From a virus (Duplodnaviria; Heunggongvirae; Uroviricota; Caudoviricetes), in IMG/VR virus record IMGVR_UViG_2585427774_000009, positions 1 to 25,822 of that record: 25,822 nucleotides of DNA; one strand, given 5' to 3'. A program made the translations under genes and the position numbers. Positions 1,245 through 9,576 of this stretch are shown piece by piece. Under the pieces are notes generated by a model that made no database searches, was not told the origin of the DNA, and saw only the letters and a program-made list of their open reading frames with translations. The stretch's first letter is position 1. Each line of letters starts with the position of its first letter.

Positions 1245-2435
1245 ATGCTCACCGTTAAGCAGATTGAAGCAGCAAAGCCGAAAGAAAAACCATACCGCCT
1301 TCTCGATGGTAATGGCCTGTACCTTTATGTCCCTGTATCAGGGAAAAAGGTATGGCAGCTTCGCTACAAGATTGACGGTAAGGAAAAAATACTGACCGTA
1401 GGAAAATATCCGCTAATGACTTTGCAGGAGGCAAGGGATAAAGCATGGACCGCGAGGAAAGACATCTCGGTTGGCATCGATCCGGTAAAGGCGAAAAAGG
1501 CTTCGTCTAACAACAATTCCTTTAGTGCGATTTACAAGGAATGGTACGAGCACAAGAAGCAAGTCTGGTCAGTAGGCTATGCAACTGAACTTGCCAAAAT
1601 GTTTGATGACGACATTTTACCCATCATCGGCGGTCTTGAGATTCAGGATATTGAGCCGATGCAACTGCTGGAAGTAATCCGCAGATTTGAAAATCGCGGT
1701 GCAATGGAGCGAGCCAACAAAGCCCGCAGAAGATGCGGCGAGGTTTTCCGTTACGCTATTGTCACCGGCAGGGCTAAATATAACCCGGCACCTGACCTTG
1801 CTGACGCCATGAAGGGATACCGCAAGAAGAACTTCCCGTTTCTTCCTGCAGACCAGATCCCGGCATTCAACAAAGCACTGGCAACATTTTCAGGAAGCAT
1901 CGTATCGCTCATTGCGACCAAAGTTTTACGCTACACAGCCCTAAGAACGAAAGAGCTTCGCTCCATGCAATGGAAGAACGTCGATTTTGAAAACAGGATT
2001 ATCACTATCGACGCCAGTGTGATGAAGGGCCGCAAAATTCATGTGGTTCCTATGTCAGACCAGGTAGTTGAACTTCTCACTACGCTAAGCTCAATCACCA
2101 AACCAGTATCAGAGTTTGTTTTTGCCGGGCGCAACGATAAGAAGAAGCCAATCTGCGAGAACGCGGTATTACTTGTGATCAAACGAATCGGCTATGAGGG
2201 TCTGGAAAGCGGTCACGGATTCAGGCATGAATTCAGCACGATTATGAACGAGCACGAATGGCCTGCTGATGCTATTGAAGTGCAACTGGCACATGCCAAC
2301 GGCGGATCTGTACGTGGAATTTACAACCATGCTCAGTATCTCGATAAGCGCAGAGAAATGATGCAGTGGTGGGCGGACTGGCTTGATGAAAAGGTGGGGG
2401 AATGCCACCCATCACACCACCCTGTCATCCTGTAG
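1245..2435 (+). CDS. intS: Tyrosine recombinase, IntS/P4-family prophage integrase
   Basis: ORF track gives 1209..2435 from a GTG; the ATG at 1245 yields MLTVKQIEAAKPKEKPYRLLDGNGLYLYVP, matching the E. coli CPS-53 IntS N-terminus as I recall it; C-terminal region contains the R...H..R...Y-type catalytic segment (GHGFRHEFST...RGIYNHAQY); sits 160 bp downstream of argW. Confidence 0.88.
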   Translation: MLTVKQIEAAKPKEKPYRLLDGNGLYLYVPVSGKKVWQLRYKIDGKEKILTVGKYPLMTLQEARDKAWTARKDISVGIDPVKAKKASSNNNSFSAIYKEWYEHKKQVWSVGYATELAKMFDDDILPIIGGLEIQDIEPMQLLEVIRRFENRGAMERANKARRRCGEVFRYAIVTGRAKYNPAPDLADAMKGYRKKNFPFLPADQIPAFNKALATFSGSIVSLIATKVLRYTALRTKELRSMQWKNVDFENRIITIDASVMKGRKIHVVPMSDQVVELLTTLSSITKPVSEFVFAGRNDKKKPICENAVLLVIKRIGYEGLESGHGFRHEFSTIMNEHEWPADAIEVQLAHANGGSVRGIYNHAQYLDKRREMMQWWADWLDEKVGECHPSHHPVIL

Positions 2436-2729
2436 CGCGCTGTTGATGAAGAACGTCACGCGCCCCAGCACCTCAACTTCCTCCGCCTCCTCCCCTTCGA
2501 TCGCTTCACCATCACCAGTGATTAATGCCCTACCCATTACCCTGGCAAACTGCGTTCTGCCGCCAGATAAAATCAGCAGAACCTGATTCTGTACCAGCCT
2601 GGTGCACGGCTCGATAACGGCAAAGCCGGATGAGGTTTCCAGGATGCGAGTGTCGACGCCAACACCGCAGATTCGCTCCGGAGTTAACCGCTGCTCTACA
2701 TAGTCGCCCGCCGGTGAAGGAAAGCCCAT
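2412..2729 (-). CDS. UmuD'-like (LexA/S24-fold) protein lacking the GDSM protease core; possibly degenerate
   Basis: Starts MGFPSPAGDYVEQRL, i.e. at the position equivalent to the post-cleavage N-terminus of UmuD' (GFPSPA.DYVEQR); the segment where UmuD carries the catalytic G-D-S-M serine is replaced by unrelated sequence (TPERICGVGVDTRILETSSG); the C-terminal part loosely resembles the UmuD dimerisation region. Start codon overlaps the stop of the upstream ORF (TGATG). Confidence 0.5.
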   Translation of the reverse strand: MGFPSPAGDYVEQRLTPERICGVGVDTRILETSSGFAVIEPCTRLVQNQVLLILSGGRTQFARVMGRALITGDGEAIEGEEAEEVEVLGRVTFFINSALQDDRVV

Positions 2730-2968
2730 CAGTGCACCCTCCCCATGTTGCGGAGGATCCAGTAGCGATTATCGCTATGGTCTGTCGTCTTATCTGCGAA
2801 GTCCGGATGATAGTACTTTATCCACTCGTTGGCGTCGGCCTGGCTGAAATGCCAGTGAACCTTTGCCAGCTCCCGAACGAAGTCAGAAGACCTCAGCCAC
2901 TGGTAACCTTTGGGATTAAGCTGAATAGCAGCGTGGAAAGCCGAGTTAATGTCTGATTGGCGGGGCAT
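2729..2968 (-). CDS. Hypothetical 79-aa protein, first gene of a LexA-box-controlled operon (position analogous to impC in impCAB-type operons)
   Basis: ORF with a GAGAGG Shine-Dalgarno 5-6 nt upstream of the ATG at 2968; LexA box 21 bp further upstream; translationally coupled to the UmuD'-like ORF. No homolog recognised from memory. Confidence 0.5.
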   Translation of the reverse strand: MPRQSDINSAFHAAIQLNPKGYQWLRSSDFVRELAKVHWHFSQADANEWIKYYHPDFADKTTDHSDNRYWILRNMGRVH

Positions 2969-2988
2969 GGTGACCTCTCATTTATTAT

Positions 2989-3008
2989 TACTGTGTATCC
3001 ATACAGTA
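2989..3008 (-). promoter_or_regulatory. LexA (SOS) box TACTGTGTATCCATACAGTA
   Basis: Perfect CTGT-N8-ACAG match to the E. coli LexA operator consensus TACTGT(AT)4ACAGTA, read directly at 2989-3008, just upstream of the minus-strand operon starting at 2968. Confidence 0.65.
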
Positions 3009-3270
3009 GTTTTAAAGTGAGTGCAGATCAATGCGGCGACGCCTATCAATAGCGTCCACAGTTATAGAGGAACGGCGAAAGAATAAACAGTAGGGCTGTA
3101 TTGATGAAGAACCCAGGGATCTTTAACGCTCATACTGATCATTTGTCAGGATGTGATTATCAATAAAGCCAGGATAGGATTAATCTCACACACTTAGAGA
3201 TGACCCGACAATAATCGAAACGACAAGAAAAATGTGGTCTCGGTTACAGGATTATCACCTTGGTAAAGGG

Positions 3271-3582
3271 ATGACTACCATGACAAAATATGAAGGAATA
3301 TCGGCCAGAGTTAAACAAGTTACAGTTAATGATTTTGGTAGATATTTCAATAGCATTGAAAATTACAAGAATGGCATTTTTTGCTATATATGCGGTGGTA
3401 ATGACTGGGATTTGCACAGAAGTCCTGATGATAAAGAAAGGCCCGTGATTATCACCTTTCCCATCCCCGATAAAGATGGAATGGGAGTATGGGCCTTTTA
3501 TGTGATGTGCAAAAATTGCGGCGGCATGCATTTTATCAATGCTAATAAAGTTGCTAATTGGTTGGATAACAAAGAAAAATGA
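3271..3582 (+). CDS. Hypothetical small protein with two C-x2-C motifs (putative zinc ribbon)
   Basis: ORF track gives 3232..3582; the more likely start is the ATG at 3271 or 3280 (AAAGGGA Shine-Dalgarno at 3264-3271). Contains CYICGG and CKNCGG about 38 residues apart. Visibly AT-rich coding sequence. Stop overlaps the next start (ATGA at 3579-3582). Confidence 0.55.
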   Translation: MTTMTKYEGISARVKQVTVNDFGRYFNSIENYKNGIFCYICGGNDWDLHRSPDDKERPVIITFPIPDKDGMGVWAFYVMCKNCGGMHFINANKVANWLDNKEK

Positions 3583-4073
3583 TTAACCCTTGCTATGATG
3601 AGAGCATCTTCAATGTTGAAGTAAGGGGTAAATCTAAGCTAAATAGCCACGCCGGTGGTATGATTGAAAATCATAACGGCGACACTATGTTAGTTGCTGA
3701 AACAATCACTATTGATTTTGAGGAGGAAATCGTGACTTCGCAAGAAAATCCGCATCTGAAAATTCCTCTTACTTTCAAATCGGCTATGTGGATGGGTATT
3801 GGTTTCGTTGCTGTTGCGCTAGGTGGAGCTTGGGCCATGTACACCCACTTAGACAACAAACTTGAAACCTATAGATCTGGTACTGAAGCCCGAATTGAGG
3901 CCGCAAGAGCAAGCCTTGATGGCAAGATAGATTCTCTCGGATCAGAAACACGCGCTCATTTTGAAGCGGCTAGAGTGGAATCTAAAGCAGATAATGCCAC
4001 CATAACAACTCAACTACAGACCATCTCAAATAGCCTATCCGAACTAAACGGAAAAGTTTCAAAAGACAAATAA
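3579..4073 (+). CDS. Hypothetical membrane-anchored protein with one predicted TM helix and a helical C-terminal domain
   Basis: 164-aa ORF; central hydrophobic segment MWMGIGFVAVALGGAWAMY; C-terminal Ala/Arg/Glu-rich repeated helical segments (TEARIEAARASLDGKIDSLGSETRAHFEAARVESKAD); translationally coupled to the upstream ORF; followed by a terminator hairpin. Confidence 0.6.
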   Translation: MINPCYDESIFNVEVRGKSKLNSHAGGMIENHNGDTMLVAETITIDFEEEIVTSQENPHLKIPLTFKSAMWMGIGFVAVALGGAWAMYTHLDNKLETYRSGTEARIEAARASLDGKIDSLGSETRAHFEAARVESKADNATITTQLQTISNSLSELNGKVSKDK

Positions 4074-4223: not shown

Positions 4224-6431
4224 TTATTTTGATTCGAGATCCTCAACACGCGCTACCAAATTTTCATACTGCTCTTTCATTCGCTCATAGTTACGGCGCT
4301 GCAGCGCAGCTTCCAGAGCCAGGGCCTCCTCATAACGAATGCCATAGCGGGATCCGGCTGGGGTTTCCAGAACCTGGCTGTAAGTTGGCTCTGCAGGTTC
4401 GGTATATTCCTCAATTACCTCAGTCGGCACCTGCTCGGTATACTCCTCCTCGACATCTTCAAGCTCTGCCTCATAAACAAAAAGCTGTTTGCCTGCCTCG
4501 TCAAGACGCGGAGAACCATCCTCGTTAAAGACAAATACCTGGATAAGCTTAGGTGTCTGATACTCTTCCTGAACTACCCTCTTGATGCGTTCTCCATCTT
4601 CCGCTTCTTCATCCACAAGAATTTCGCGCGTGGCTGTCATCATCACAGGTCGTTTTACTGTACGGGTTTTTGTCACTTCCATCATGCGGCTGACAGTGCG
4701 GGTTTTTGTTACTCGCTCCCCCTCATTGGTCCGCACTGAAATATATTGGTCTTCCCATTCGTCGTAACAGAGGAGCCCGAGACCGAAGCCATCAATGCCA
4801 TGCGATGCAAACACCTCCTCCACGCGCTGCGCAATAAGGCCGAAGTGCCAGCGCGCACCGTCTTCGCCTTTTTGCGCAACCGCATCATCAAACTTAAACC
4901 GCGTGCGCCAGCTGACTTCCTCCCAGGCATCGAGGACCACATCAGGGATCGCTTCCTTAATTGGCTTGTGATTGTCATCGGAGGTGTTAATCGCACCAGT
5001 ACCAAAATAGGCAGTACGTCCTCGATATGAGGCTGAGCCATAATCGAACTGGTTATCGGCGCTCGGGCGCTGGGTGCAGTTATAGGTGACAATCCCGGCT
5101 TTTATCTCATAGTTACCTTGCCCATCTGTTGCACTACCACCGCTAACCACTACGCGAGCGTCAAAAGCAGAGCCAGCCCCACTGGACCGGTATATTGTTT
5201 GCACCGTGCTTGCAATAGTTGGAGACCCTACTGACGTAAACGCCCCTGAGTCTTCTAATTGCAAAGATTTGGTGCTGAGCTTAACCAGGTTGTGGAAAAT
5301 GATGTGGTTCACTTCAACCAACGAACCGAGGGAAAGGACGCGGTCTATTTTTGGGCAGTCGACGGAAAGTACACGGCTGTCTTCACCAAATACTGCCCCG
5401 CCATTCTGCGGGCCAAAGGCAATACCGGTTCGCCAGGTGCAGGCGCTACCCATGTTACCGACGCTAATTGCAGCATCAATTACGTCGCCGCGTTTTGCCT
5501 TGGTGCCGCCGATTTGCAGGCCGGTTCTGATGTTTGAGCTGGCACCCTCCGGAATGCCGACGTTGAATTCAGCCCCCGTGACATTGAGCGTATACATAGC
5601 CCCTGGGGTAAGCGTTCCGTAGAAATTACCACCAAAATAAGCCCCCTTAGCGCCAGCAAGCGATACTCCACCGTCTCCAGTTGAGGAGGTCGCAAAGCCG
5701 GTGACGCCTACATAGTTTCTGTCAGTATTTGTTGCATCAGTCTGACCAAGCTGCTCAAGGATGAATTCAGCAGCGTGGCGGCCGCCTTTACATCCCGCCC
5801 CCCCGAATTTGTGATTCAAGAGGAATCCGTCAACCTTTGTTCCGGGAACCATGTCATCAACAGCATTGAAACGGTCATCGTCAATCCTGATATAATTGAA
5901 CTTGGCCGTGTTGACAGTGAGCCCGCTCCCGGTAATCGGCTCCGCAAGATGAACCCCGATCCCTCGGGTAATATCATCTCCGAATTTCTCTCCTGGCCGC
6001 CCCTGCAGAATTGAAAACTTATCCAGTCCTCGGCTCATTACCCCAGGACCTACTAATGCAGCGCCGCCCAGCGCAGCTAATTCAGCCCTTAACTGGTCTG
6101 GAGCATATTTCAGAACATCAGCAAAATAGAATTGTTGGGTGCCGTATGAATCGCGAATCTCCATGCTGTAATTTTGCACGGTGACGAATTTAACAATCTG
6201 ACCGTTATAAACGGGGAATCCGCCAGCATTTATTCGCAATGGCTGAGGTACTGGAACATGGGTCCCATCTTCATTCTCAATATAAACCTGAATTTGGTTA
6301 GCAGGATTCGTAGGATCTGTATCCACTAGCCCAATAAAGATTTCTCCATTGGCAACAGCCTTAAATGCACGAGCCATAGTAAATGGCTGGCTAGGCATGG
6401 CGATAAGAACATTCGCGGTAATATCTGACAT
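4224..6431 (-). CDS. Tailspike protein: P22-like head-binding N-domain, glycine-rich receptor-binding/depolymerase domain, C-terminal S74-type intramolecular chaperone domain
   Basis: 735-aa ORF; N-terminal about 110 aa (MSDITANV...FKAVANG...[19 protein letters not shown]...LKY.PDQ) matches the P22 gp9 head-binding domain from memory; central Gly/Thr-rich region typical of beta-helix spikes; C-terminal part has a Ser-(x4)-Lys motif (TSDDNHK) and WHFGLIAQ resembling endosialidase-type autoproteolytic chaperone domains; last gene of the late operon as in P22. Confidence 0.85.
4657..4712 (-). repeat. Imperfect 36-bp tandem duplication inside the tailspike C-terminal domain
   Basis: ACTGTACGGGTTTTTGTCAC (4657-4676) and ACAGTGCGGGTTTTTGTTAC (4693-4712) on the plus strand, encoding the duplicated peptide VTKTRTV in [22 protein letters not shown]. 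Confidence 0.5.
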
Positions 6432-6531: not shown

Positions 6532-7434
6532 TCAGTAGTTATGTACTGAAGGAGGTAATTCTTTATTCTTAAGTCTCATCCATGCGGAAAGATTCGTTGG
6601 TCCGTCTGGCTCATTGATATCAACATCTCGTGAGTGATTGATTAAAACGTCTCTCGCTATATCGATAATACGGGAGAACTCATAACCGCAGTCATGACAT
6701 CTGCCGGAATAGTTCGATTGAATTTGTTTCAGCGCCGGATACAGTTCGCGGAATAATGCCTGTGAGCGGTTGGCATAATCCCATAACCATACAAGACTGT
6801 TTGCTTCTTTTGCAGAAAGCTCGTTGGTTTTCTTATCTTGTTTGCCGATAAACTCGCCTTCAAGCACTACCCTGTGGATGTACTCTACTGCTTGCGGTAT
6901 CTGAGATGCATCAAGCTCTTCAATACTTTCCACGTTGAAACGCTGATGAATCATTGCATAAGCTTCTGGGTACATTAGATGCTTTTTGCTGACTAGCATA
7001 TTTACAGCATCACGAAGCGGAGTCCTGTCATCAACAGATGTTTTCTTACGTGCATTTTCTGCCTTTCCCTTCGTCCAGTAGTCATGCAGCACGCTAAAGC
7101 ATTCCTCCTGGTACTGAATCAGTTTATCACGGATGTCAGCACGAACTTTCTCAGGGTTGATGCTGAACAGCCATCCATTTAACTTCTTCAAAGGAAGGCA
7201 GAGTAGCTTACGAAGCTTCCCATCAGCGGCAACCATGTTCATATGAACACAGTTGAATTTGCTAATCTGCTTCATGAGTTTTGTTTGCTGCGTTGACCAG
7301 CTCATTCCAAGGTTTTCAACGATTGGCTTCATCGCAACATATGCAACTCCGGCAGCCATGGCGGTGATAATTTGCTGACCGTTGAATGGTACGTAAGAGG
7401 TGTTCACTGCTTCTAAAATTGCTATACTATTCAT
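6532..7434 (-). CDS. ant: Antirepressor Ant (P22 immI)
   Basis: ORF track gives a 322-aa ORF; the internal start [21 protein letters not shown] matches the P22 Ant N-terminus from memory and gives 300 aa, with a GGAGA Shine-Dalgarno upstream; position downstream of arc. Confidence 0.85.
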
Positions 7435-7502
7435 GTTGGTTTTTCTCCACGGATTTACTGACAACCGAAGCCCTGACTGTTCCCGCAGTTGGGGCTTCAA
7501 CT
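7435..7502 (+). ncRNA. sar: Possible sar-type antisense RNA region (arc-ant intergenic, antisense to the ant ribosome-binding site)
   Basis: Established P22 biology: a small antisense RNA is transcribed opposite to ant across its translation-initiation region. Here the 68-bp arc-ant spacer contains a GAAGCCC...GGGCTTC hairpin. Ends not determined; placed by analogy only. Confidence 0.3.
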
Positions 7503-8019: not shown

Positions 8020-9027
8020 TTACTTGTCTGAATCATCCAGTTCGTCTGTTTTCACATCCTCAAACCTTGGATGCAGGCGATTCATTTTTGCAATAAAATC
8101 TGAATAGTCGTTAGATAGCTTCATAATCGTAACGGTTGATGACAGATGCTCTCTTAATTTTTGATATCCAATATTTGGCGTCAGCCCCTGAAACAACTTT
8201 GTACCTTTTGAGGCCTTTACGTTCTGCTTTTTAAGCTCCTCAAGGATGTTTGGTGCCAATCTCTTGTAGACGATATCATTTGTCAAAACGCCAAAATACT
8301 GAGGCCGGAAGCGGGGATTTTCCGGCGGGTATTCTAAGCCCCTTAACCTGAAAAGCTCTTCATAATAATCAGCAGGAAATGTTGTAATATAAGGTTGAAT
8401 TTCCTTTGCGACAAAGGCCTCGAGTATTTTGGCGAGTGCATCTTTTTCTCTATCTCGCTGGTAACCCGTCGCTTCATCAACAAGCGCTATTATTCCGACT
8501 TTAGCTAATGAGCGCACCAGAATTTCAGCTTTCTTGGCTGTCTCTAACTGGTTTGGCCTGGTGATAGCGCCTGCCTCTCTTGCCTTTAAATAAACATCGC
8601 AGACAAGAGGTATTATGGATGCGTCATAACCTTCCTGGACGGAGCCAGTAATCGTCTTGTATTTGACCTTATTGATCACATCCATAACATCTTGATTTAT
8701 ATATTTTTTAAGGTTTGCAGCATCCATAAAAGCGGGCATATTGATCACCCCCTCTTCTTGAGGTGCTCTACCCCCTCTTTGTGGTCGGCCAAATGCTTTA
8801 AAAACAGAAGCTTGTGATATGATACGCCGTCCATTTTCGAGAACCGCGACATCTAATTCCGCATCACCGATCTTTAACTTTCCCTCATTCGCAGATACGG
8901 GCAATAAAGCTTTTTCTTTTTTTGCGGCAACAGCCTTTCTTGAGGATTCTTTTCTTTGCTCTGCTGTCATTTTTGCCGCGCGTGCCTTACCGCCTTTGGC
9001 CTTCCCACTAACATCATCATTTTTCAT
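8020..9027 (-). CDS. Hypothetical protein with basic Lys/Ala-rich N-terminus and a C-terminal region resembling the P63C-type phage domain
   Basis: ORF track gives 8020..9087 (355 aa); the likely start is the ATG at 9027 or 9033 (MKNDDVSGKAKGGKARAAK...). The IALVDEATGYQRDREKDALAKILEAF segment resembles my recollection of P63C-domain proteins; unverified. Occupies the position where P22 carries sieA-region genes, between gp16 and mnt. Confidence 0.6.
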   Translation of the reverse strand: MKNDDVSGKAKGGKARAAKMTAEQRKESSRKAVAAKKEKALLPVSANEGKLKIGDAELDVAVLENGRRIISQASVFKAFGRPQRGGRAPQEEGVINMPAFMDAANLKKYINQDVMDVINKVKYKTITGSVQEGYDASIIPLVCDVYLKAREAGAITRPNQLETAKKAEILVRSLAKVGIIALVDEATGYQRDREKDALAKILEAFVAKEIQPYITTFPADYYEELFRLRGLEYPPENPRFRPQYFGVLTNDIVYKRLAPNILEELKKQNVKASKGTKLFQGLTPNIGYQKLREHLSSTVTIMKLSNDYSDFIAKMNRLHPRFEDVKTDELDDSDK

Positions 9028-9069
9028 GAGCATATCTCGTGTTGTGATTGATAAGTCAATCATACACAT

Positions 9070-9104
9070 GCACGTTGTAACGTGCAATATTTAAATATGC
9101 ACGT
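9070..9104. promoter_or_regulatory. Cluster of palindromic operator-like sites in a divergent promoter region
   Basis: GCACGTT-GT-AACGTGC inverted repeat (9070-9085), perfect 12-bp palindrome ATATTTAAATAT (9087-9098) and a third GCACGT copy (9099-9104); lies between the minus-strand 355-aa gene and the plus-strand 129-aa gene. Confidence 0.35.
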
Positions 9105-9186: not shown

Positions 9187-9576
9187 GTGAAGCAATTTCT
9201 TACTGCTATGTTCTTATTCATATCTTTTGGGGCTACAGCAGAGTGCTGGGTCGTTGGAGATATGCGCGGAATAAGCTATTCAGAACGAAATAATTTCCAT
9301 CCGGAAGAAGATGGTTTTAGTGGAACATTCATCATTAAGACAAACGGTGAAGATGCCAGCATCACATATTCTGGGACAGATGCGGGCGGCATGGCTTACA
9401 AAGCATTGTCTAAAAACTCCATCATAGGAATCGGCGCGAATGGCGAAACTCAACGCGTTATCGACTCATGGGTAATACATCCAACTGGAACAGTTTTAAT
9501 GTCAAAAACCATTTCCGGTTATGGAAATATGGATTCAACCAAAGCTTTTGTTGGAAAAGTAAAAAGAAAATGTTAG
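9187..9576 (+). CDS. Hypothetical secreted (signal-peptide) small protein, opposite-strand moron
   Basis: GTG start preceded by a strong AAGGAGG Shine-Dalgarno with 6-nt spacing; N-terminus MKQFLTAMFLFISFGATA-E is a typical Sec signal peptide with an A-x-A cleavage site; transcribed against the late operon. Confidence 0.6.
   Translation: MKQFLTAMFLFISFGATAECWVVGDMRGISYSERNNFHPEEDGFSGTFIIKTNGEDASITYSGTDAGGMAYKALSKNSIIGIGANGETQRVIDSWVIHPTGTVLMSKTISGYGNMDSTKAFVGKVKRKC

Follow-up and report, generated by a model that had tools for sequence, protein, structure and literature searches.

RecA* cleavage of UmuD is a checkpoint that delays the error-prone DNA polymerase V (Pol V) until late in the SOS response. 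Several phages encode a related protein of their own: the genes for P1 HumD, N15 gp26, phiKO2 gp23 and HK140 gp28 stand alone behind a LexA site, are not accompanied by umuC, are translated from the post-cleavage position (MGFPSPA...) and specify an acidic C-terminal tail of the DDxPVI type. In the P1 record the LexA site is marked and humD is annotated as 'functionally complements E. coli UmuD''; HumD is also the subject of a 1999 paper by McLenigan, cited in PMC11541004. Here we describe a two-gene cassette on the minus strand of a Caudoviricetes sequence, IMG/VR record IMGVR_UViG_2585427774_000009, of which positions 1 to 25,822 were analyzed (the 25.8-kb window). Its first gene (2729-2968, minus strand) encodes a 79-amino-acid (aa) orphan protein predicted to be a winged helix (phrog_3893), and its second (2412-2729, minus strand) a 105-aa mini-UmuD' (phrog_3469) that has lost the catalytic residues and that we conclude, from alignments and predicted structure, to be a reduced, protease-dead offshoot of the HumD lineage. 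The two open reading frames (ORFs), both present in the ORF list, share one base in an ATGA stop/start overlap and form a translationally coupled pair. The second gene already carries the label 'UmuD-like' in PHROGs and RefSeq; what is added here is that it encodes a pre-processed UmuD' of the HumD type, that its obligate partner had not been characterised, and that the pair is widespread on mobile elements. In our best reading, which we place a little on the probable side, the cassette provides an SOS-induced, pre-activated UmuD' surrogate that uses host UmuC.

The 105-aa protein and its 79-aa partner

The 105-aa protein starts with M-GFPSPAGDYVEQR, a stretch whose residues line up one by one with those of UmuD from Gly25 onward, and a reading made from the window's sequence alone (the sequence-only reading) had correctly placed this start at the equivalent of the RecA-cleaved N-terminus. 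The N-terminal arm is the best-conserved segment of the family, and 13 of its 14 residues (GFPSPAxDYVEQR) are identical to those of E. coli UmuD. Methionine aminopeptidase removes Met before Gly, so that the mature N-terminus (GFPSPA...) should equal that of RecA-cleaved UmuD'. Single-sequence searches recognised only the 18-21 N-terminal residues of UmuD and HumD, and homology to E. coli UmuD over the full length was detected by profile and fold. A 37-member family profile aligned significantly with UmuD residues 23-136 in hhalign (probability 97.9%, E 4e-13, 97 columns), and hmmsearch of the PDB with the family profile found both UmuD and UmuD' at E 1e-9 to 3e-8.

The protein was aligned with UmuD, P1 HumD, N15 gp26, HK140 gp28 and members of its own short family. 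An 11-residue deletion removes the GDSM/Ser60 loop (the 'SGDSMIDGGIS' stretch of UmuD), and the position of UmuD Lys97 is taken by Ala in a conserved 'FA', leaving the protein without the Ser-Lys catalytic dyad (UmuD Ser60 and Lys97). The loss of the catalytic-serine region had been noticed before and attributed to a protein 'without the protease core'; this description fits one loop and the dyad, but not the S24 beta-fold, since the LexA/UmuD-type fold is kept in the predicted model, with common descent detectable in the profiles. A protein that keeps this fold and has lost the Ser60 loop and Lys97 would be a ready-made, non-proteolytic UmuD' surrogate and, having neither the 24-residue pro-segment of UmuD nor the dyad, would require no RecA-dependent activation step. 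The earlier suggestion of a pre-activated UmuD'-like protein is supported in this form, as a pre-processed UmuD'-like product that lacks the catalytic serine. The protein also differs from E. coli UmuD in having no adjacent umuC and in falling below the Pfam S24 threshold, while sharing its upstream SOS box.

The likeness to HumD includes the start at the UmuD Gly25 equivalent, the umuC-less gene on a mobile element, the upstream LexA box and the acidic DDxPVI-type tail, which is common to the short family and HumD proteins but is not found in UmuD. The differences are those of a further reduction: HumD has 129 aa and a Ser60 loop, whereas the window protein has 105 aa, two further shortened loops and the Lys97-to-Ala change. 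In addition, P1 and N15 have no winged-helix gene upstream, whereas the window's 105-aa gene is coupled to one; HK140 resembles the window here, as a 79-aa gene precedes its 129-aa HumD-type gene. Intermediate members (P0362, P0372, Erwinia and Pantoea phages) retain the UmuD 'HPSAT' segment. The short family is a small one, with 175 cluster representatives at E<=0.001 among 1.84 billion.

The 79-aa protein is predicted to fold as a winged helix, on the grounds of both its H1-b1-H2-H3-b2-b3 topology and structural similarity. No significant match to it was found in Pfam, NCBIfam, PADLOC or PDB sequences; in PHROGs it belongs to phrog_3893, which has no assigned function, and a search for remote relatives of the family in PDB sequences and BFVD returned only the family itself. 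The sequence-only reading had compared it to ImpC-like small proteins. We rejected an ImpC/DinI-like identity, as there was no DinI match in Pfam or NCBIfam and the predicted fold is a winged helix instead; dinI is actually a separate gene beside the cassette in mEp390, HK140 and Eeyore. It was likewise rejected that the protein is a fragment of UmuC or of the LexA N-terminal domain, or mimics either (hhalign probabilities <1%). Its gene neighbourhood (see below) marks the 79-aa protein as an obligate partner that is expressed together with umuC-less, arm-bearing UmuD' genes; candidate roles for it are those of an assembly or stabilising factor, a targeting factor or a regulator. Among rare fused or deleted variants (P0298 and P0384), one has the 79-aa N-terminus joined to the C-terminal half of a mini-UmuD', and in another the 79-aa gene reads through into MGFPSPA. 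These variants are probably decay products, yet they also give Rosetta-stone-like hints of a functional link.

A winged helix and an S24 fold are the two domains of LexA, here on two coupled polypeptides, and in Acinetobacter the small protein DdrR and a UmuD homologue are reported to work together in co-repression (PMC10808703; PMC7273328). The cassette could accordingly be a split LexA-like or UmuDAb/DdrR-like regulator, in which the winged helix binds DNA, the S24-like protein serves as dimerisation or co-regulatory partner, and the output is a damage-induced transcription factor for phage, plasmid or host genes. We consider this improbable. The hhalign comparison revealed no relation of the 79-aa family to LexA (the DdrR sequence was not compared), and the family consensus has a net charge of ~0 by our own count. 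Winged helices that read DNA typically have a basic helix 3 and wing, but in this family helix 3 (D-A-N-x-W-I) and the wing carry acidic or aromatic residues; given this wing and the near-neutral charge, it is uncertain whether the 79-aa protein binds DNA. Moreover, HumD works without such a partner in P1 and N15.

Probable SOS control of the cassette

At 2989-3008, 20 nt before the ATG of the 79-aa gene (2968), is a LexA box, TACTGTGTATCCATACAGTA, whose minus-strand reading is TACTGTATGGATACACAGTA. It matches all 12 specified positions of the consensus TACTG(TA)5CAGTA and is the sole CTGT-N8-ACAG site in the window, where by our own arithmetic ~0.003 perfect 12/12 matches are expected. The left half of the box, TACTGT (3003-3008), doubles as a -10 hexamer, so that the box overlaps the promoter; a -35-like hexamer, TTGATC (3026-3031, minus strand), precedes it with a 17-nt spacer, and a Shine-Dalgarno-like GAGAGG (2974-2979, minus strand) lies 5 nt upstream of the 79-aa ATG. 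The textbook box that the sequence-only reading had seen ~20 bp upstream of the operon is thus a perfect one, and the layout is kept across relatives, as described next.

All eight annotated loci examined (the window, mEp390, Eeyore, LAU1, Midgardsormr38, AH07, phiES15 and CobraSix) have a LexA box 13-25 nt before their first gene (8/8), although the proteins of the other loci are only 34-64% identical to those of the window. TTGATC is found 17-18 nt before TACTGT in seven of the eight, and also in most of a larger set of 124 loci that carry the 79-aa gene (40 from genomes, 80 from IMG/VR, plus phage records), which are not independent samples. Within 70 nt upstream of the 79-aa gene, CTG[TA]N8[TA]CAG is present in 112 of the 124 and CTG-N10-CAG upstream in 7 further loci; the remaining 5 have no box, although 2 of these are one mismatch short of one. 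In many of these loci the box has the sequence TACTGTATATAAAAACAGTA, which is that of the operator of the E. coli umuDC operon. Box and promoter geometry are kept among relatives down to ~35% protein identity, a strong conservation across deep divergence. From the consensus match, the promoter-occluding placement and the conservation among orthologues we infer that LexA controls the cassette.

A strict scan of 2300-3300 for sigma-70 promoters and terminators called neither promoter nor hairpin, and the cassette promoter was therefore deduced from conservation instead. Directly after the 105-aa stop, a weak hairpin, GGUGG-N7-CCACC followed by UUUUC (2391-2410, minus strand), is a possible weak terminator; it is not the minimum-free-energy fold, and its z-score of -1.46 is non-significant. 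A second element, TTGATAGG on the minus strand (3042-3049), lies 10 nt upstream of the -35 TTGATC. It recurs as TTGATAGG(C/T) in a subset of cassettes (also loci L003, L006 and L131) and could be an upstream promoter element, another operator or merely shared ancestry. In mEp390, HK140 and Eeyore (L002 3287-3372; L009 1174-1258; L001), one LexA box is found in the short region between divergent dinI and 79-aa genes, and this single operator may control both transcription units.

Gene neighbourhood, spread and proposed function

An arm-bearing UmuD'-like gene lies directly downstream of the 79-aa gene in 95 of the 99 loci with enough downstream sequence, and the ATGA overlap is found in 92 of these 95 pairs. 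The partner has 100-113 aa in 83 pairs, is of the HumD type (120-131 aa) in 5 and is truncated in 7. No UmuC homologue is encoded within 3 kb of the 79-aa gene in any of 125 loci, and a divergent dinI lies by the cassette in 21-28 of them. In the window, too, no umuC follows the pair, as had been noted, and tblastn revealed no UmuC-like or HumD-like coding remnant in any frame; the proposed search for a frameshifted ancestral umuD or umuC in other frames thus came out empty. These results do not fit the idea that a umuDC/impCAB-like operon was truncated at the integrase junction, because the same intact, always umuC-less two-gene unit occurs in ~95 loci. A decaying remnant of such an operon without present function would explain the lost catalytic residues, the absent umuC and the seven truncated partners, but we regard it as very improbable: both ORFs are intact, length, coupling and promoter are kept in ~90 distinct pairs at 35-90% identity, the pairs span several Enterobacterales genera including Erwinia and Pantoea, and the predicted models of both proteins are confident, folded domains.

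The short family also has arm-less members (CobraSix type, N-terminus MEAKAQRY...) that lack the 79-aa gene. In 68 of 68 such loci with enough flank, a LexA box is followed by the mini-UmuD' and then by a full-length UmuC homologue, as in locus L007 (2447-4059) and in L133-L211, from CobraSix-like Enterobacter phages. These proteins share with that of the window the reduced 100-105-aa fold and 46% identity over residues 13-105; they have UmuC and neither the GFPSPA arm nor the 79-aa gene, whereas the reverse holds for the window clade. Because these relatives adjoin UmuC, the reduced fold does serve as a polymerase operon partner.

In lambdoid and P22-like phages of Escherichia, Klebsiella, Enterobacter, Cronobacter, Pantoea and Erwinia, the cassette is flanked by the gene for the tail fibre or tailspike on one side and by att/int on the other. 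The 79-aa gene was counted in at least 573 IMG/VR stretches, 48 phage records and 1031 plasmids; of the 1031 PLSDB records that match the 79-aa protein, 946 are conjugative, mostly IncX3 (blaNDM/blaSHV). On IncX3 plasmids, the 79-aa gene (39% protein identity to that of the window) precedes an IS26-cut 'delta-umuD' with a GFPSPA start, no Ser-Lys dyad and no umuC, all behind TACTGTATATGCATACAGC; the LexA box is also present on CP067570.1 (L213 2961-3599). The partner there differs from that of the window in being of the longer HumD type, usually cut by IS26, and in its plasmid context. Another plasmid locus is L212 3001-3599 (NZ_KU761328.1 6365-6963), and in pNDM5_IncX3 the left half of the LexA box has been cut off by ISKox3.

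This spread bears on the possibility that the cassette is a LexA-controlled antirepressor module comparable to Gifsy GfoA/GftA, 186 Tum or N15 AntC. One or both proteins would then target the prophage repressor, for instance by forming a pair with its S24-type C-domain, and thereby induce the prophage. The layout is alike in that small LexA-box genes lie at the prophage edge, outside the immunity region and sometimes near dinI, as in Gifsy dinI-gfoA-irsA and 186 tum (PMC3121763). Nevertheless, we hold this to be highly improbable. The cassette is found in several heteroimmune phage types and also on conjugative IncX3 plasmids, where no phage repressor exists; such a spread points to a conserved host target. 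The prophage in the window already encodes a P22-type Ant antirepressor in an immI-like region (6532-7500, minus strand; phrog_245, E 6e-95), and so does not depend on the SOS cassette for an antirepressor. With the 79-aa protein as query, tblastn matched no Salmonella or Gifsy record in a collection whose Gifsy content was not checked. A Gifsy-type link was rejected: the layout is similar, but no sequence relation to the Gifsy or 186 antirepressors was found, and the cassette also occurs on plasmids. Gifsy-1 STM14_3218-3220 is unrelated.

How the mini-UmuD' may act as a surrogate with host UmuC can be outlined as follows. In the undamaged lysogen, host LexA on the -10-overlapping box would keep the cassette off, and removal of LexA upon DNA damage would allow both coupled genes to be expressed. 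The mini-UmuD' would then dimerise, bind host UmuC and insert its conserved N-terminal arm, and the element would probably use the host error-prone polymerase, including its translesion activity, without the usual activation step. We favour this outline because of the complementation annotation of HumD, the UmuC-linked sisters, the conservation of the arm and the precedent for non-catalytic subunits. In AlphaFold models of Pol V, one UmuD' N-terminal arm adjoins the UmuC active site, and a single N-terminal residue change in UmuD' affects mutagenesis (PMC11791011). YolD was proposed as a non-catalytic UmuD' counterpart (PMC6511836), and by this analogy it is plausible that catalysis is dispensable in accessory subunits.

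Several observations weigh against a surrogate that works with host UmuC. Pfam Peptidase_S24 (PF00717) did not match the 105-aa protein at E<=1; among the aligned proteins, UmuD and the three HumD-type proteins matched it but none of eight short-family members did. The NCBIfam HumD model (NF051876) gave 29.1 bits against a cut-off of 120 bits, over residues 1-21 only, and the threshold of the NCBIfam UmuD model was not reached. The promoter hexamers are weak, TTGATC being too weak for a strict consensus scan. The Pol V model (PMC11791011) puts the C-terminus of UmuC in contact with UmuD' residues that correspond, in our renumbering, to Ser60, Thr95 and Lys97; since Ser60 and Lys97 are lost here, it is not certain that host UmuC is bound. 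The 79-aa gene and umuC strictly exclude each other (0/125 versus 68/68), perhaps because the arm-bearing clade has adopted another function. The host umuC lies outside the window, and in the available literature we found no experiment on the reduced family, its 79-aa partner or their linkage.

Some of these points agree equally with a decoy or brake, in which the mini-UmuD', possibly helped by its winged-helix partner, would reduce SOS mutagenesis in the host, or RecA* signalling, by forming heterodimers with host UmuD or UmuD', by occupying UmuC unproductively or by acting as an uncleavable mimic in the groove of the RecA filament. The UmuD arm and S24 fold bind in the RecA groove (PMC9926225), and the window protein keeps the cleavage-site-proximal arm and the fold, yet is uncleavable. 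The product of dinI, which lies divergently beside the cassette in mEp390, HK140 and Eeyore among others (the 21-28 loci above), is a RecA-filament binder, the residues predicted to hold the UmuC C-terminus are gone, and the arm-bearing clade is never linked to umuC. Even so, we think a decoy rather unlikely, because P1 HumD, the closest characterised relative, is annotated as complementing UmuD', the sisters with the same reduced fold are UmuC operon partners, and a resemblance to known inhibitors of RecA or of the SOS response was not found.

A broader possibility, unlikely on balance, is that the two proteins form a LexA-controlled device, spread by phages and IncX3 plasmids, that goes beyond simple replacement of UmuD'. 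For example, such a device could seize the UmuC of the host, or the RecA filament, and so change the timing or direction of SOS mutagenesis to the element's benefit, or could be a split LexA-like regulator of the kind considered above. Compared with these alternatives, it is the surrogate working with host UmuC that we prefer.

Prophage setting and wider meaning

The left end of the window carries yfdC (1-933) and tRNA-Arg(CCT) (argW, 1009-1083), followed by an IntS-type integrase ORF, int, on the plus strand (1209/1245-2435), and P22-like prophage content runs from ~4.2 kb onward. The DNA-transfer, head and terminase genes are 83-97% identical to those of IME10, HZ41, APC_JM3.2 and P22. The SOS cassette occupies a variable slot between int and the tailspike gene, and is a mobile 'moron' in a P22-like prophage integrated at argW; the same slot of the argW prophage in E. 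coli K-12 contains gtrABS. Between the cassette and the tailspike gene, and divergent from the cassette, are two cargo genes on the plus strand. One (3232-3582) encodes a 116-aa protein with two CxxC pairs (phrog_4293; a weak, sub-threshold Lar-like match), and the other (3579-4073) a 164-aa protein with a hydrophobic segment, a coiled-coil-like tail and a weak Rz-like match. The PADLOC anti-phage defence models matched neither the SOS cassette nor these two neighbouring genes. The tailspike (4224-6431, minus strand) has the conserved P22-like N-terminal head-binding domain in residues 1-129; its receptor-binding part looks like those of different families of tailspikes and tail fibres, which points to an exchange of the host-range module. 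The ORFs adjoining Ant, at 8020-9087 (minus strand) and 9187-9576 (plus strand), belong to PHROGs with no assigned function.

The int and 105-aa ORFs are convergent and overlap by 24 bp in the ORF list, just as the sequence-only reading had pointed out. E. coli EC31 carries the same cassette 9 nt past the end of a shorter intS of 385 aa, without overlap, which indicates that the overlap is not conserved but specific to the window. Homology to the int genes of HK620 and IME10 ends near position 2397, and the last ~12 int codons (2398-2435, ..GECHPSHHPVIL) differ from these and read into the cassette. The antisense transcription into int that the sequence-only reading expected upon SOS induction is possible; just the weak hairpin described above follows the 105-aa stop.

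If the preferred reading is true, a ready-'cleaved' UmuD' supplied by a mobile element under LexA control could remove the delay of Pol V that cleavage of host UmuD imposes. Removing it would give lysogens and plasmid carriers more damage tolerance and a larger supply of mutations under UV or SOS-inducing antibiotics such as fluoroquinolones. The module is common, including on epidemic IncX3 blaNDM plasmids, and both of its genes are mostly annotated as 'hypothetical'. The either/or rule, by which a mini-UmuD' gene is accompanied by the 79-aa gene or by umuC, provides a testable handle on how UmuD'-type subunits engage the polymerase. If instead the two proteins act together as a device, the 79-aa protein would be a new class of Pol V/SOS modulator.

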